Positions 4,226 through 54,037 of a stretch of 64,000 nucleotides of DNA are shown in pieces. This stretch comes from Candidatus Hodarchaeaceae archaeon (GTDB taxonomy: Archaea; Hadarchaeota; Hadarchaeia; Hadarchaeales; Hadarchaeaceae), in assembly GCA_030018135.1 (NCBI GenBank), contig JASEGJ010000001.1, positions 64,001 to 128,000 of the forward strand. The letters run 5' to 3'. The translations under genes and the position numbers were made by a program. The notes below the pieces were generated by a model that was not told the DNA's origin, made no database searches, and saw only the letters and a list, made by a program, of their open reading frames with translations. Each line of letters opens with the position of its first letter. Position 1 is the stretch's first letter.

Positions 4226-7098
4226 CTAACCCTTTGCAACGCCAATGGGCTTGAGCCGAGCGACCATCCGCGCAGTGCCCGCGTCGTGGCTGACCTTCAC
4301 CACGCGATCGACATCTTTGTAAGCTTCGGGGGCCTCCTCCGCGATGACCGATATCTTCACCGCTCGCACGATGATGCCCTTGGCTTCCAAGTCGCGTTTG
4401 ACCTGCTCGCCCCAGTATTGCTTTAGCGCCGCGGTTCGACTCATGTGGCGCCCGGAGCCGTGTGCGGTCGAGGCAAAGGTCTCCTGCATGGCCTGTTCGG
4501 TGCCCACCAACACGTAGGAAGCGGTGCCCATGTCCCCCGGGATCAATACAGGCTGGCCGACATCGCGATAAATTGCCGGTATATCCGGATGTCCTGGCCC
4601 GAACGCGCGCGTCGCACCCTTGCGGTGCACGTAAACCTTCCGTAGCTCGCCGTCGACGCGGTGTTCCTCGAGCTTGGCGATATTGTGCGCCACGTCGTAA
4701 ATTATGTGCAAACCAAGGCTTCCGGCATCGCGACCGAATACCTGCTCGAAGGACTGTCTGACCCAGTGGGTTATCATCTGGCGATTGGCCCAAGCGTAGT
4801 TCGCCGCGCACGCCATCGCTGAAAAGTAAGCTTGCCCCTCGGGCGAGGTCACGGGCACATTCACCAGCTCTCGGTCTGGAAGCTCGATCTTATATTGCCT
4901 GACCACGCGCTCCATCGTCCTGAGGTAATCGGAACAGACTTGGTGGCCCAAACCTCGCGAGCCCGTATGGATCATCACCGTTACCTGTCCCTCGCGCTCT
5001 ATGCCAAACTTGCTGGCCACCTGTGGGTCGAGGATCTTATCGACCTGCTGCACCTCGAGGAAGTGATTGCCTGAGCCTAGGCTACCCAACTGTGGGAAGC
5101 CCCGTTGCTTCGCGCTCATGCTGACCTTCTTGGCGTCTGCACCCGCCATACAGCCGCCCTCCTCCAAGCGCTCGATGTCCTCCTTCCAACCGAAGCCGTT
5201 CTCGACGGCCCACCTCGCCCCATTCGTCAGGACCTCGTCCAGCTGGGCGAGTGTGAGCTTCATGTGGCCTGTGCTCCCCAAGCCTGAGGGCACGTTTCGG
5301 AAGAGTGTTTCCACTAGCTGGCGAAGCTTTGGCTGGATATCTTTTTTATCGAGGTTTGTTTGCAGCAACCTGACCCCACAATTTGAAACCACAAAACAGT
5401 CCGCAACAAAGTTGTGATGATTATCCCTAACCGTAAAGTCGTACACTTGACCATTGTGTTCGATCTCCTCCATTTTCACGATCCTATCGTAAACAATTTC
5501 CCCCTCCAAAAACTTGCTCAAAAATTCCTCAAATCTGATGAAGCCCTTTGGAGGTCTAGCCCCTTCGGTTTCCTCGTATATGCTCCTCTCGATAAACTTT
5601 TTATTGACCGGCCCCTCGTACCTCTTCATCAGTTCCTTAGCGCTGCTTTCCCTGCGATCCTCCCGTGTCTCCTTCCTTAAAAGCTCCCTTTCCTGAACAA
5701 TGGCTTGTTTTAGTCTTAGGTAGACGACCGCTGCCATAGCGAGTGCCCTTCGTTTTCTGTTGTATTCGTATCCCACCTTAGACCATAATTTGACCAAGTT
5801 TTCGGGATCTCCGTGAACTAAGAGCCTATAGATTGCCTTGTTCTCGGTCTCCTCAGCGATTGAAATAGTTGAACTCACACCGAACTCCCTAAGCATCTCC
5901 TTTAAATCCCGCAGGAATTTGAGACCGTTTCTCTCTTTCCCCTTCTCTTTGGAAAGCTTTAGCTCGGGCATGTAGAAATTGTAGCCATTCATCGTTTTCG
6001 GCTTGGACATTTCCGCTCCAAAATAGGCAGCCAAAAATAATCTTTTCAACCAGTTGGGTAATCTACGCAACCATCTCGGAACGCGGAAGTCTGCTTTTGT
6101 TTTATCTCCCTTTGGATAGCCAAGTGCCCGTAGGAGTTCGGTGAGGCTCCTAGCAGAAACTCTCAGGAAAACCTCATTTCTAACAAATCTATATCCCTTA
6201 ATTTCGTGCTCCCGTCTCCTCTCGTATATCCTGCCGGCATATCCTAGGGAATTTAGATCCGTCTTTACGTCTTCCAGATCGCTTCTTTCCCCGTAAAATA
6301 CCACGTTCTTGCCGTAGACGACCCCGTCGCCCAGCAAGTAGCTGAAGATTTTCACAAGGTAAGGCAACTTTTCATTTGTAGTAGTGAGGGGAAGCAGTCC
6401 TCGCTTTTTCAACTCTTCTCTAATTGCTTTCCCAAAGCTTTCTTCCGACGCGATCTCGAACTCCACCGGTTCCTCGTAAGCTACGCCCTCAAATGGGTGA
6501 ATCCCAACTTCCTCACCCTGGTAGAGATTCTTGGCCTCCTTCATCCCTACCCTAGTTAGGACTGGGTGATCTGGGGAGAGGGTCAACTTAAACCCTGCCG
6601 CTGTTTCAATCCTTCGGAGGGTCTGTTCATCCCTGTTGAGAGTCAGAAGAACTTCAGTGGGCCTAGCGTGGCCTTGGTTCAGTACGATTACTTGGTCACC
6701 CACGGAGACCTTTTCAATTTCAGCCCAATATCCGAGGGGGGTTAAGACCTTAGTATCCCTTGGAAGGCAGTTGATATCATAGCCCACACCGCCGGGGCTG
6801 ATGACACCCGTCTCAGCATCTGTGGCGGCTACACCCCCGATGGGGAACCCTTAGCCCGAACACGTTTGGACGTGTTCGAATAGCCCTGGTGCCCATCGGG
6901 GAGCGTTATCGAGTACTTATAGATCCCTTGCAGGAACGAAACATTCGCGGCCTGCTCCAGCGTCAGGTCCTTCCTCATCTCGTTGAGCAATTCGGCATCT
7001 GCATAAACTCGGGCTGGCGCGCGCATCCCGCGCTTGTAGTCCTGAGGGATCTCCCAGCGGACATCGTCGATTTGCTTTATTTTACCAGTCCACGACAT
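4226..7098 (-). CDS. rtcB: RNA-splicing ligase RtcB; join of 6880..7098 and 4226..6850 (29-nt intron), contains an intein
   Basis: [69 protein letters not shown]; about 484 aa after removing intron and intein. Confidence 0.95.
5381..6769 (-). mobile_element. Intein (463 aa) with LAGLIDADG endonuclease in RtcB
   Basis: Begins CLPRDTKV, block [13 protein letters not shown] and [11 protein letters not shown] motifs, ends [18 protein letters not shown]|C; inserted before the metal-binding Cys of DINCGVR. Confidence 0.95.
6851..6879 (-). other. Candidate BHB/BHL-type mRNA intron in rtcB (29 nt)
   Basis: GGCU AU^U CGAACACG UCCAAA CGUGUUCG GGCU AA^G; removal gives in-frame Gln-Gly-Tyr-Gly-Phe-Pro. 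Confidence 0.88.
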
Positions 7099-7161
7099 TT
7101 TTCTCACATAAATAAGGTGGACACAATGTTACTAATTACCTTTTGGTTCGGAAAAGTATGC

Positions 7162-7518
7162 CTAGCTTTGTAAAAGAAAACTCCCTATGGCAGCTCCGGT
7201 ATGTGGGGCTTTTGTAAGTAGTCCGGAGAGTAATAGTTTTCTTAGTTCATTTCGTCGGCTAATCCGGACCCAAGAGCGATTTTGATTATCATGCGTTGTA
7301 AGAGTACATTTGATCCCAAAACAATATCGAAGCATGTGAGCAATTTTGGCCATTGCTTGAGAGTCGTGTGACCCCAACTCAAATGATCCATATCTACCTG
7401 CTTTCACGCGGAAATACCCTCGATGTTTGAATACCTCCAATAGTACTAGCTTGGCTTTTTTGCCGTTTCCTGCTTTTAGATGCCCCCAATCTCCGTAATA
7501 CTTCCGGTATCGACTCAA
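7162..7518 (-). CDS. Basic hypothetical protein, possibly a degenerate LAGLIDADG-like domain
   Basis: LRYCFGIKCTL...SWVRIS resembles a LAGLIDADG C-terminal half; TTG start overlaps upstream ORF stop (TTGA); AT-richer DNA. Confidence 0.5.
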   Translation of the reverse strand: MSRYRKYYGDWGHLKAGNGKKAKLVLLEVFKHRGYFRVKAGRYGSFELGSHDSQAMAKIAHMLRYCFGIKCTLTTHDNQNRSWVRISRRNELRKLLLSGLLTKAPHTGAAIGSFLLQS

Positions 7519-8090
7519 GATAGCCGCAATTTCATTTGCTTACGCTGATGATAGAAGCCGACTCTATTGTAGAAGCGCTCCAAATTTTCCCGTCCACAAA
7601 TCCTTAGCAGATGGGTCCCTCTATGGCTCCGAAATTTTAGATGCGAATAAATACCGAAATCCTTGACCAAAACTGCTCTTAGGTGACATAATCCTGCTTG
7701 GTTTACCGATTCAACAGTTACTTCTCTGTTTACGTAAGTGACCGTAGCGTCTGAATCAAAAAACGCCCTTATCCATTCCCGAATCCATCGCTGTTTTTTA
7801 AGATTAGGCATCCGCCACTTATGGGAGCCCACTGGCCCTAAAGATAAGATTGTGTGGACGACTTTCTTTTTTTGGGCCAATACTGTAAACCATGCGCCAT
7901 ACCTACCTTCCGCCTCATGGACGCTTGGGGGATAATCGAGCTTAGCAAAAGCTTCTACTATTCTGTTCAAACAAGCTCGATCATCAATCTTGATGTCCAA
8001 ACGAACTCTGGACTTCCGATAAGGATAACTGTAGATATTGGCATAACCATCGCCGCACACGTAGCCATGCAATCTGGCAAGGTACCGCAT
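7515..8090 (-). CDS. Free-standing LAGLIDADG homing endonuclease-like protein
   Basis: LARLHGYVCGDG and WIRAFFDSDA motifs, FGI, FYNRVGFYHQRKQ; no intein splicing blocks. Confidence 0.8.
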   Translation of the reverse strand: MRYLARLHGYVCGDGYANIYSYPYRKSRVRLDIKIDDRACLNRIVEAFAKLDYPPSVHEAEGRYGAWFTVLAQKKKVVHTILSLGPVGSHKWRMPNLKKQRWIREWIRAFFDSDATVTYVNREVTVESVNQAGLCHLRAVLVKDFGIYSHLKFRSHRGTHLLRICGRENLERFYNRVGFYHQRKQMKLRLS

Positions 8091-8198
8091 CTTTTGCGAA
8101 TTTACCTTTATGGATGCACCCCGACAAATTAGCTGAAGAAAAAACGACCTAAGCGATTTTGGGGAGAGAGATGCCCGAAAGTAACTATAAAGGCCAGC

Positions 8199-8627
8199 TC
8201 AGATATCGACGACCGCTTGTACCGAACACCTGCCAGGCTCGTGCTTGATCTCCATCATGTGATAGGTCATAGCCTTGACCGCGGTACGGGTATCATGACG
8301 CTTCGGGTCGAAACGCTCCCCCCAAGCCCTGGCTTTGACCTTGAAGTTGTGGTCGCGCTGAATGAGCTCATCGACCTTAAATTTGGACATCACAAACCCC
8401 TGTGCATCATAAAAGTAGAGGAACCGCTCGAGCCAGTCATACAGCAGCGCGCCCTCGTCCTCGGCCTCGAGCTCGATGCTGACCTCCTGCAGCGGGCGTA
8501 CTTGGCTGGTGTCCACCATCACCTCGAATAGGGCCAAGGCCGCATTCTCGAGCGCCTCGGCTAGGTCTCGTCCATAAGCGCGGAAGCCTACGTCGGAGGG
8601 ATGCTCAACCCACTCGAAGCGCTTCAT
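8199..8627 (-). CDS. Archease (RtcB activator)
   Basis: FEWVEHPSDVG, VKAMTYH, C-terminal VVDI. Confidence 0.93.
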   Translation of the reverse strand: MKRFEWVEHPSDVGFRAYGRDLAEALENAALALFEVMVDTSQVRPLQEVSIELEAEDEGALLYDWLERFLYFYDAQGFVMSKFKVDELIQRDHNFKVKARAWGERFDPKRHDTRTAVKAMTYHMMEIKHEPGRCSVQAVVDI

Positions 8628-8707
8628 TTCAACATCCGCCGAAATTTTCTTTAATCGATCAATCCACATTTAATTTTAAAAGTTGAGACATTTAAATTAC
8701 GGCTGGG

Positions 8708-44328: not shown

Positions 44329-44451
44329 TGGTGGGGTCGCTGGGATTCGAACCCAGGTCCCTGGCTTTTTTGCCCGACCTTGTCCCATTTGGCAGACCAT
44401 TGAGAACTTGATCTTAAGCCAGAAGGATAGGCCAAGCTACCCCACGACCCC
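44329..44451 (-). tRNA. tRNA-Pro(TGG) with two introns: 44388..44415 (33/34) and 44367..44383 (37/38)
   Basis: UGGC UU^A..GCCA AA^U then UUUG GG^A..CAAA AA^A; Pro-type GGGGTCGTGGGGTAG 5' end; CCA encoded. Confidence 0.9.
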
Positions 44452-45807: not shown

Positions 45808-45915
45808 TGGAGCCCCGGGTGGGCTTTGAACCCACGACCTACTGATCGCTTGCCGCCTGGTTACAAGTTTCGACAGCTCACCTTCAGTCGCTCTACCAGG
45901 CTGAGCTACCGGGGC
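45808..45915 (-). tRNA. tRNA-Thr(TGT) with two introns: 45869..45884 (30/31) and 45847..45861 (37/38)
   Basis: CGAC UG^A..GUCG AA^A; CUUG UA^A..CAAG CG^A; CCA encoded. Confidence 0.9.
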
Positions 45916-48084: not shown

Positions 48085-48203
48085 TGCCGGGGGCGGGACT
48101 CGAACCCGCGATCTCAGGATTTCTCACATCATGGTTGATCAGCACTCACAGCCAGTGGTTTGGGCTATGAGTCCTGCGCTTTAACCAGCTAAGCTACCCC
48201 GGC
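48085..48203 (-). tRNA. Elongator tRNA-Met(CAT) with 45-nt intron 48121..48165 (37/38)
   Basis: CUCA UA^G...UGAG AA^A; G1-C72 acceptor. Confidence 0.92.
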
Positions 48204-53940: not shown

Positions 53941-54037
53941 GCGGCCGTGGTCCAGCCTGGTTAGGGCGTTAAGCGCCGCCAAAGGACCCAGGCTCCCCAA
54001 GCCTGTGGCGCGGGTTCGAATCCCGCCGGCCGCACCA
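53941..54037 (+). tRNA. tRNA-Gly(CCC) with 20-nt D-loop intron 53964..53983 (21/22)
   Basis: UGGU UA^G GGCGU..GCGCC GCCA AA^G; CCA encoded. Confidence 0.9.

Follow-up and report, generated by a model that had tools for sequence, protein, structure and literature searches.

A probable tRNA-type intron within the coding sequence of the RNA ligase gene rtcB in Hadarchaeota

The interrupted rtcB gene and its predicted fold

The DNA analysed here, hereafter the window, is a stretch of 64,000 nt from a Candidatus Hodarchaeaceae archaeon of the phylum Hadarchaeota (assembly GCA_030018135.1, contig JASEGJ010000001.1, positions 64,001 to 128,000 of the forward strand). Its minus strand carries the gene for the tRNA-splicing ligase RtcB, whose conserved motif PDGHQGY-GFPIGG is split by 29 nt and whose second half contains an intein. 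We consider it highly probable, and well supported by comparison with related sequences, that the 29-nt insert is an archaeal intron of the bulge-helix-bulge (BHB, or tRNA) type lying within the rtcB coding sequence, and from the sequences we infer its cleavage by the splicing endonuclease EndA, the ligation of the exons, and that RtcB itself is the ligase. The gene is laid out as follows, with ↓ marking a cut, a junction or an insertion point throughout.

rtcB start codon: ATG at 7098, minus strand
rtcB exon 1: 7098..6880, minus strand; 73 codons with the C-terminal end ...LPDGHQGY; matched by RtcB N-termini in 38 of 41 relatives
Intron 1: 6879..6851, minus strand; 29 nt between PDGHQGY and GFPIGG; predicted to be excised by EndA and probably released as a circle
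rtcB exon 2: 6850..4226, minus strand; from GFPIGG to the stop codon at 4226, intein included; Pfam RtcB, PF01139
Intein: 6769..5381, minus strand; 463 aa with a LAGLIDADG domain, before the Cys of GYDIN↓CGVRL

Exon 1, which closes with the codon UAU at 6882..6880, is 65-92% identical to the RtcB N-termini of relatives, and exon 2, with 6850 as its first base, matches PF01139 past the intein with 521.5 bits over profile positions 49-426; a profile search of the genome also matched RtcB profile positions 23-50 around intron 1. Once the intron and the intein are removed, the gene gives a full-length RtcB family match with a mature extein of 484 aa. The unspliced frame hits a stop at 6829..6831 and would yield a peptide of 92 aa from the GTG at 7107 or 89 aa from the ATG at 7098. 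The intein (Pfam Intein_splicing, Hint and LAGLIDADG_3) is predicted from its sequence to start with Cys1 and to end in ...VVSN↓C (N463) with Cys at +1; its penultimate residue is Ser, a position usually occupied by His, and intein-free relatives read GYDINCGVRLL without interruption.

Read as minus-strand RNA, the region is ...CCCCGAUGGG C ACC AG GGCU AU↓U CGAACACG UCCAAA CGUGUUCG GGCU AA↓G GGU UC CCCAUCGGGG. The minimum free energy (MFE) of the RNA of 6911..6825 was -46.1 kcal/mol, compared with -29.2 ± 3.5 kcal/mol for 200 dinucleotide shuffles of the same interval (z -4.83), none of which folded as well (0/200). The parts of this fold are given below in 5' to 3' order of the RNA.

Whole splicing structure: 6835..6901, minus strand; closing helix, 3-bp helix, relaxed 3' loop, central helix, 5' bulge and hairpin, as in the MFE fold
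Closing exon-exon helix, 5' strand: 6901..6892, minus strand; CCCCGAUGGG, in the Pro-Asp-Gly codons
Central helix, 5' strand: 6885..6882, minus strand; GGCU, inside the exon-1 Gly-Tyr codons, pairing with 6856..6853
Intron hairpin h': 6878..6857, minus strand; stem 6878..6871 with 6864..6857, loop 6870..6865
Central helix, 3' strand: 6856..6853, minus strand; GGCU, the last paired bases of the intron
Closing exon-exon helix, 3' strand: 6844..6835, minus strand; CCCAUCGGGG, in the Pro-Ile-Gly codons

The central helix GGCU/GGCU has exactly 4 bp between the cut sites, two G-C and two G-U pairs, and the core is flanked by the 10-bp closing helix (6901..6892 with 6844..6835) together with a 3-bp helix, ACC/GGU. 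At the 5' splice site a true 3-nt bulge, AUU, separates the central helix from the hairpin, which has 9 bp in the MFE fold and 8-10 bp across the sequences compared, the corresponding bulge of relatives being AUA or AUG.

Removal of the 29 nt leaves CAG GGC UAU↓GGG UUC and thereby a protein identical at this place to all 25 of the 25 uninterrupted orthologous loci (PDGHQGYGFPIGG), and the boundaries are unambiguous, as a shift by one base in either direction alters the product. The archaeal enzyme is described, in the available part of PMC2738675, as making its cut between bulge residues two and three. Cutting after the second bulge nucleotide at both sites (AU↓U and AA↓G) gives the same boundaries as the comparison with orthologues, so that two independent routes agree. 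A first-pass annotation, which had the letters of this DNA and a list of its open reading frames (ORFs) to work from, had described the motif split by 29 nt at 6851..6879, the in-frame junction under the cutting rule, the 89-aa unspliced peptide, and a fold with a GGCU/GGCU helix, a 10-bp exon-exon helix and a relaxed 3' site; all of these statements hold, and the fold that it drew is the one recovered as the MFE.

Recurrence, covariation and a second intron

An insert occupies the same site in 5 of 30 related loci, the other 25 reading PDGHQGYGFPIGG without a break. Of 66 Hadarchaeota genomes covered by a motif-free screen, which used the length of the open frame behind an exon-1 match, 58 have such a match and 6 of these have the insert, namely G000, G002, G009, G015, G022 and G043, all members of one family. 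Pattern scans returned five records from a genome collection, all titled Hadarchaeota, Hadarchaeales or Hadesarchaea, and 15 metagenome contigs with the insert. The window and the scans together give 18 distinct sequences of 79-80 nt, nine with an insert of 29 nt and nine with one of 30 nt, and no form can be read through: a frameshift results from the 29-nt forms, and the last three bases of each 30-nt form are UAA, in frame.

These data bear on the idea that the ribosome bypasses the 29-30 nt, as in phage T4 gene 60, or that the insert is an assembly artefact, to which we attach almost no credence. Bypassing would be in keeping with a hairpin that stands directly 3' of the last exon-1 codon; however, the take-off codon UAU does not match the would-be landing codon UAA, landing on the second GGC would run into UAA, no stop stands 3' of the take-off codon, and the two-fold bulge-helix-bulge geometry would have no role in such a process. 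An artefact, which the first-pass annotation had named as a case that would speak against it, is hard to reconcile with an insert that recurs, with variation, across independent assemblies, in five further species genomes and the 15 metagenome contigs.

A comparison of related genes for a same-site insert with covarying stems had been suggested as a check in the first-pass annotation, and such an insert is what the 18 sequences contain. Folded individually, 17 of them have the central helix, the 5' bulge and the hairpin in their MFE structure (the exception is L039, a distant allele described below), and the 4-bp GGCU/GGCU helix is present in 18 of 18, an invariance that is partly forced by the search pattern. 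In the alignment of the 18 sequences 91.4% of the cells pair, against 28-52% if the 3' partner is slid by one to three columns. Compensatory double changes occur at seven of the nine pairs of the intron hairpin, the basal pair for instance being C-G in 12 sequences, U-A in five and G-C in one, and the covariation score was matched by none of 500 shuffles.

The exons bear a corresponding imprint. Among 17 intron-bearing flank types, on average 8.9 of the 10 positions of the closing helix are paired, with nine or more in 15 of the 17, compared with a mean of 6.4 of 10 among 25 intron-less types, none of which reaches nine (0/25). The Gly-Tyr codons are GGC UAU in all intron-bearing alleles and in 2 of 25 intron-less alleles. 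Four codons (Asp -6, Gly -5, Pro +2 and Ile +3) have a third base whose pairing partner is invariant; the diversity at these third positions, 0.49-0.69 in alleles without the intron, is down to 0-0.24 in those with it, whose unpaired Phe +1 codon, inside the tract, retains 0.46. This pattern at synonymous sites is a better fit to selection for pairing than to mere co-conversion. By hand count, the third positions of the His and Gly codons in the 3-bp helix can pair in 15 of 16 intron-bearing types as against 13 of 25 intron-less types. The G of the AG opposite AAG is kept in 15 of 16 alleles despite being a synonymous site.

Further support comes from a second intron in relatives. In three related alleles (L009 of genome G022, L038 of genome G043, and L051) exon 2 stays open for no longer than 30 codons, and an insert of 31 nt lies within the Asn codon of GYDI-N-C, 78 nt downstream of intron 1 and 2 nt before the point at which rtcB of the present genome holds its intein.

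Second intron: L009:1331-1417, L038:2189-2275 and L051:372-458, all minus strand; L039:202-276, plus strand

This intron has the strict hBHBh' form: ACAU pairs with GUGU (with AUGU in one allele), the bulges are AA↓U and UA↓A, and the hairpin has 9 bp. The cutting rule applied to it would give GAC AUA AAC UGU, that is D-I-N-C. Its hairpin contains two compensatory pairs, and 56 of 57 cells are paired, which for three sequences is not significant alone. A distant archaeal rtcB (L039/L048), placed by an Atlas search among archaeal RtcBs only and with no lineage assigned, has the motif PDMHFGY and contains a 30-nt intron 1, a 21-nt intron and an intein. Its intron 1 has a clean 3' bulge by manual reading, though not in its MFE fold, and removal of the 21-nt strict BHB intron restores G-V-G-F-D-I-N-C; both L039 introns have a 3' bulge of the strict kind. 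Of the indirect support for splicing of the rtcB message, these canonical introns in the same gene are the strongest piece.

Two further observations concern individual relatives. The alleles L008 and L010 (genus g4) are the sole two intron-less ones with GGC UAU at the insertion site and may represent either precise loss of the intron or ready-made targets for it. Genome G009 has two rtcB N-termini (contigs C3 and C8; L015 is among them), one with intron and intein and the other uninterrupted (an open frame of 514 aa), so that either the gene has a paralogue there or the bin contains a second strain.

A functional gene, its splicing machinery and the proposed route

A disabling insertion, for example by a short hairpin-forming element that duplicated its GGCTA target, would make rtcB a pseudogene, and it could point to the stopped reading frame and to the direct repeat GGCUA that flanks the insert. 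We regard this as very improbable: the repeat is simply the near-palindromic central helix, the gene is the sole rtcB locus of a genome of 1.1 Mb (45 contigs, 93% complete), and the reading frame stays open through the other 411 extein codons and through the intein. Rfam, on whose calls we rely as the intron mode of aragorn was inconsistent, detected 28 tRNA genes genome-wide, at least 16 of which are longer than 88 nt and need splicing. Moreover, the median ratio of nonsynonymous to synonymous divergence (dN/dS), taken over 285 exon nucleotides, was 0.055 for the 96 usable pairs of 16 intron-bearing alleles (over saturated synonymous divergence) and 0.049 for the 39 usable pairs of 24 intron-less alleles, the others being saturated. 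A second intact rtcB beside a copy under relaxed selection, another case that had been named as speaking against an intron, was not found in this 93% complete genome. A MITE-like (miniature inverted-repeat transposable element) repeat was also considered and is ruled out by the single occurrence of the hairpin core in the genome.

Besides the one rtcB, the genome has one endA, a gene for 179 aa with the domains PF01974 and PF02778 at a single locus on contig C33. Residues 11-177 of the encoded EndA align with residues 6-169 of 1a79, the homotetrameric enzyme of M. jannaschii, with no large insertion or extra loop. Tyr, His and Lys at what we take to be the positions of the catalytic triad are identical in the alignment. 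The genome search found no Rnl-type ligase above the cut-off and no other ligase for 2',3'-cyclic-phosphate ends; a LigT-like 2H protein was found.

The window has seven tRNA genes, of which four carry an interruption, in one case within the D-loop; these four are listed here.

tRNA-Gly(CCC): 53941-54037, plus strand; 20-nt D-loop intron at a non-canonical position, ending ...AA↓G
Three further tRNA genes with inserts of 31-45 nt: 44332-44451, 45811-45915 and 48085-48203, minus strand

A relative has a tRNA-Gly gene that lacks the D-loop intron of tRNA-Gly(CCC) and is otherwise near-identical, and between relatives the stem of the intron differs. The intron serves only in part as a precedent for a relaxed 3' site, since one Watson-Crick pair can flank its 3' bulge. 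The lineage combines an intron-rich tRNA set with a single endA of homotetramer-like type, and disruption may have kept further tRNA genes from being detected. Given these interrupted tRNA genes and the single endA and rtcB, the cell depends heavily on EndA and RtcB. The cbf5 gene of this genome is uninterrupted, and a script that sought BHB motifs bridging two open frames returned 1926 candidates genome-wide, which is far too unspecific.

Several points weigh against reading the insert as a BHB intron. Intron 1 lacks a clean bulge at its 3' site, where AAG lies opposite AG in a 2x3 internal loop that is followed by the 3-bp helix, so that in Hadarchaeota this site has a relaxed, HBh'-like form and not the strict hBHBh' form. 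The available portions of PMC5829648, PMC2738675 and PMC12397907 tie relaxed motifs and mRNA introns to heterotetrameric or epsilon-type EndA, and this genome has one homotetramer-like endA; among 25 related genomes 23 have one gene over the cut-off and none has a second. Either the EndA of this genome tolerates more than its type would lead one to expect, or the AG/AAG loop changes shape on the enzyme. In addition, the scans of metagenomes and of the genome collection fixed the letters of the central helix and the bulges, whose invariance therefore carries no weight, and related alleles are non-independent samples; the pattern-free phylum screen found no insert with other letters in central helix or bulges.

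The route that we propose would run as follows. In the pre-mRNA, GGCU(AU) of the Gly-Tyr codons would pair with the GGCU at the 3' end of the intron to form the 4-bp central helix, held in place by the intron hairpin of 8-9 bp and the 10-bp exon-exon helix. The single EndA would cut AU↓U in the 5' bulge and AA↓G in the 3' loop, leaving 2',3'-cyclic phosphate and 5'-OH ends, and RtcB protein already present, assisted by archease from the gene upstream, would join the exons to ...CAG GGC UAU GGG UUC..., with the junction CAGGGCTAT↓GGGTTC in the joined message. The spliced message would then be translated, and the intein would leave at the protein level. If RtcB performs the ligation, new RtcB can be made only where RtcB already exists; the ligase's need for itself thus follows logically from the mechanism.

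Origin of the intron and comparison with known systems

Whether this self-dependence has been shaped into a control device is a separate matter. The first-pass annotation had gone on from a tRNA-type intron, cut by EndA and joined by RtcB, to an evolved feedback circuit in the manner of XBP1; the former part stands on recurrence, covariation, pairing at synonymous sites, purifying selection, the single rtcB copy with endA and archease at hand, and the second, canonical intron of relatives, and the latter is unsupported in view of the patchy distribution, the intein site 78 nt away and the link with a homing-endonuclease gene. A circuit like that of XBP1/HAC1, in which RtcB synthesis is coupled to the activities of EndA, RtcB and archease, is by analogy conceivable and in our assessment improbable. 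In its favour, dependence of rtcB expression on RtcB would follow from the mechanism, the structure is conserved at synonymous sites, and archease is co-oriented upstream. On the other hand, the intron is carried by only 6 of 58 genomes of the phylum and close relatives manage without it, the loop would be self-reinforcing and not homeostatic, and the intron shares rtcB with an intein and, depending on the allele, with a homing-endonuclease gene and a second intron as well, which are the marks of selfish elements. Given the patchy occurrence, the distance of 78 nt to the intein site and the linked homing-endonuclease gene, the likeliest view of the intron is that of a selfish insertion which the host tolerates, and not that of a regulator.

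The genes upstream of rtcB are the following.

LAGLIDADG homing-endonuclease gene: 8090..7162, minus strand; between archease and rtcB, in two frames, 8090..7515 and 7518..7162
Archease (RtcB activator): 8669..8199, minus strand; upstream of rtcB on the same strand; Pfam PF01951, 158 bits

Archease lies upstream of rtcB at most related loci. The endonuclease gene (Pfam LAGLIDADG_3) is frameshifted in the window, where it is probably decayed, and intact copies of 308-319 aa stand at the same place on L044, L047, L052 and L053, with pairwise proportions of nonsynonymous differences (pN) of 0.17-0.27 against synonymous ones (pS) of 0.73-0.88. The family counts 15 members in 5.8 billion proteins, and among 66 Hadarchaeota genomes a close homologue occurs in the present one only. 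Each chain has two LAGLIDADG motifs, and the motifs GDGS and FFDSDAT are invariant in 14 sequences. An AlphaFold model (pLDDT 83.8) has an alpha-beta-beta-alpha-beta-beta-alpha core and matches I-DmoI with a TM-score of 0.71-0.74 by target, and the fold search also returned PI-PfuI, the Tli VMA intein endonuclease and I-Tsp061I; a sequence search against solved structures gave no match, so that these matches come from the fold search alone. An inverted-repeat search of 7090..8210 for a BHB motif around the endonuclease gene found nothing convincing.

The distribution of this gene relative to the intron is as follows.

17 distinct intron-bearing Hadarchaeota alleles: endonuclease gene in 8, none upstream in 7, contig too short in 2
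25 intron-less loci: endonuclease gene in 0

By analogy with known mobile introns, the intron might be mobile, in that the upstream I-DmoI-like endonuclease would cut intron-less rtcB at or near GY↓GF, repair from the donor would copy the endonuclease gene and the mini-intron together, and the intron would shield its own chromosome, a candidate case of collaborative homing. This reading, which we put forward tentatively, concerns the origin and persistence of the intron and is compatible with the splicing mechanism. It would account for the endonuclease gene beside 8 of 15 readable intron-bearing alleles and 0 of 25 intron-less loci, for the rarity of the family, for the constraint on the four intact copies, and for a modelled fold that is that of archaeal endonucleases borne by introns and inteins. 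The near-identical alleles L042 and L047 differ in the presence of the gene, and alleles that carry it require neither the intein nor intron 2. This is nevertheless an association only: seven of the eight carrier contigs were found through the intron pattern, so that the counts say that the gene is common beside the intron and unseen without it, and they leave out the contexts of about eight other members of the endonuclease family. Furthermore, the alleles are kin and the window copy is frameshifted. A tree of 238 exon columns and 41 alleles, from which the short-flank rows L007, L039, L043 and L049 were left out, has little resolution, with good support for 8 of its 38 inner branches; the minimum number of changes on it is eight, of which the well-supported branches force only one, and one gain or several fit alike.

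In the intron-less loci L014 and L032 about 1 kb between archease and rtcB is taken up by unrelated ORFs, a pair of 170 aa and 190 aa in the former (L014:375-1449, plus strand) and a 237-aa membrane-like protein in the latter (L032:721-1434, plus strand), which is a point in favour of mobility and from which it follows that the spacer accepts several kinds of insertion. If so, rtcB, whose product is required for the removal of such introns, might be a site favoured by parasites of three kinds that remove themselves, namely two RNA introns, an intein and a homing-endonuclease gene, with the intron splitting the target of the endonuclease; this too we regard as possible and not as probable.

If the intron is what we take it to be, it places a case of an mRNA intron within a coding sequence in a further phylum, Hadarchaeota, and in a lineage with a homotetramer-like endA, which calls into question the rule that mRNA introns need the heterotetrameric enzyme. 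Expression of RtcB would depend on inherited RtcB protein, and that protein must also shed its intein. The two introns and the associated endonuclease gene make the question of how tRNA-type introns originate and spread testable; collaborative homing, if true, would be the first such system on a protein-spliced archaeal intron and would give BHB introns a way of reaching new sites. On the practical side, gene callers will call such an rtcB broken, and pathway inference would then wrongly lose tRNA ligation.

The first-pass annotation knew of no intron in rtcB, and our literature searches, which covered the full text of papers, likewise returned no report of an rtcB intron or of any mRNA intron in Hadarchaeota. 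As mRNA substrates of the archaeal splicing endonuclease, the available parts of PMC7714728 and PMC10485636 name cbf5 of some Crenarchaeota and the HVO_1309 leader, and one of the two adds that more such substrates probably await discovery. The crenarchaeal cbf5 intron (Watanabe 2002; Yokobori 2009, PMC2738675) resembles the present one in being a short BHB-type intron of a coding sequence at a catalytic or conserved motif and, in the portions of PMC2738675 at hand, in being cut between the second and third bulge residues, in its often relaxed motif and in its patchy gains and losses. By contrast, the host here is the RNA ligase itself and not a pseudouridine synthase, the lineage is Hadarchaeota and not Desulfurococcales or Sulfolobales, there is one homotetramer-like endA in place of the heterotetramer thought to permit mRNA introns, and some rtcB alleles carry two introns. 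The intron in the 5' untranslated region of HVO_1309 of Haloferax volcanii, as presented in the accessible sections of PMC7714728 and PMC10485636, is likewise an mRNA substrate of EndA outside Crenarchaeota; however, it lies in an untranslated leader, whereas removal of the rtcB intron, which interrupts codons, is indispensable for the protein. In the present genome endA overlaps the downstream gene for tryptophan-tRNA ligase by 4 nt (L003:362-2013, minus strand, contig C33), and the same 4-nt overlap of endA and trpS is described for Haloferax volcanii in those sections.

Splicing of XBP1/HAC1, according to the available text of PMC8718801, also relies on a protein endonuclease that cuts an mRNA at stem-loops, with RtcB rejoining the ends in animals. 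There, however, the enzyme is IRE1 and not EndA/TSEN, the reaction is a regulated stress signal, and the spliced message does not encode the ligase. Archaeal BHB introns of tRNA and rRNA, including the I-DmoI-type rRNA introns that encode LAGLIDADG endonucleases, share the motif and the cutting rule with rtcB intron 1; the D-loop intron of tRNA-Gly(CCC) in the window also ends in ...AA↓G, and the endonuclease encoded nearby is modelled with the I-DmoI fold. In contrast to those introns, that of rtcB has an mRNA host and leaves no room for an ORF, and the endonuclease is encoded beyond its bounds, about 280 nt upstream.

In phages, an ORF-less intron and a free-standing endonuclease gene next door reportedly act together in collaborative homing (psbA with F-CphI; T4 mobE with I-TevIII). 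The rtcB locus is similar in having an ORF-less intron in a conserved gene and beside it a free-standing endonuclease gene that is seen here only with the intron, but the phage introns are self-splicing group I introns and their endonucleases belong to other families. The rtcB intein presumably has its counterpart in the RtcB inteins of Thermococcales, such as the RtcB/Hyp-2 intein of Pyrococcus horikoshii, which likewise bear a LAGLIDADG domain and precede the conserved Cys of GYDINC. Those are elements removed at the protein level, whereas three related rtcB alleles carry, 2 nt upstream of that point, an RNA intron instead.

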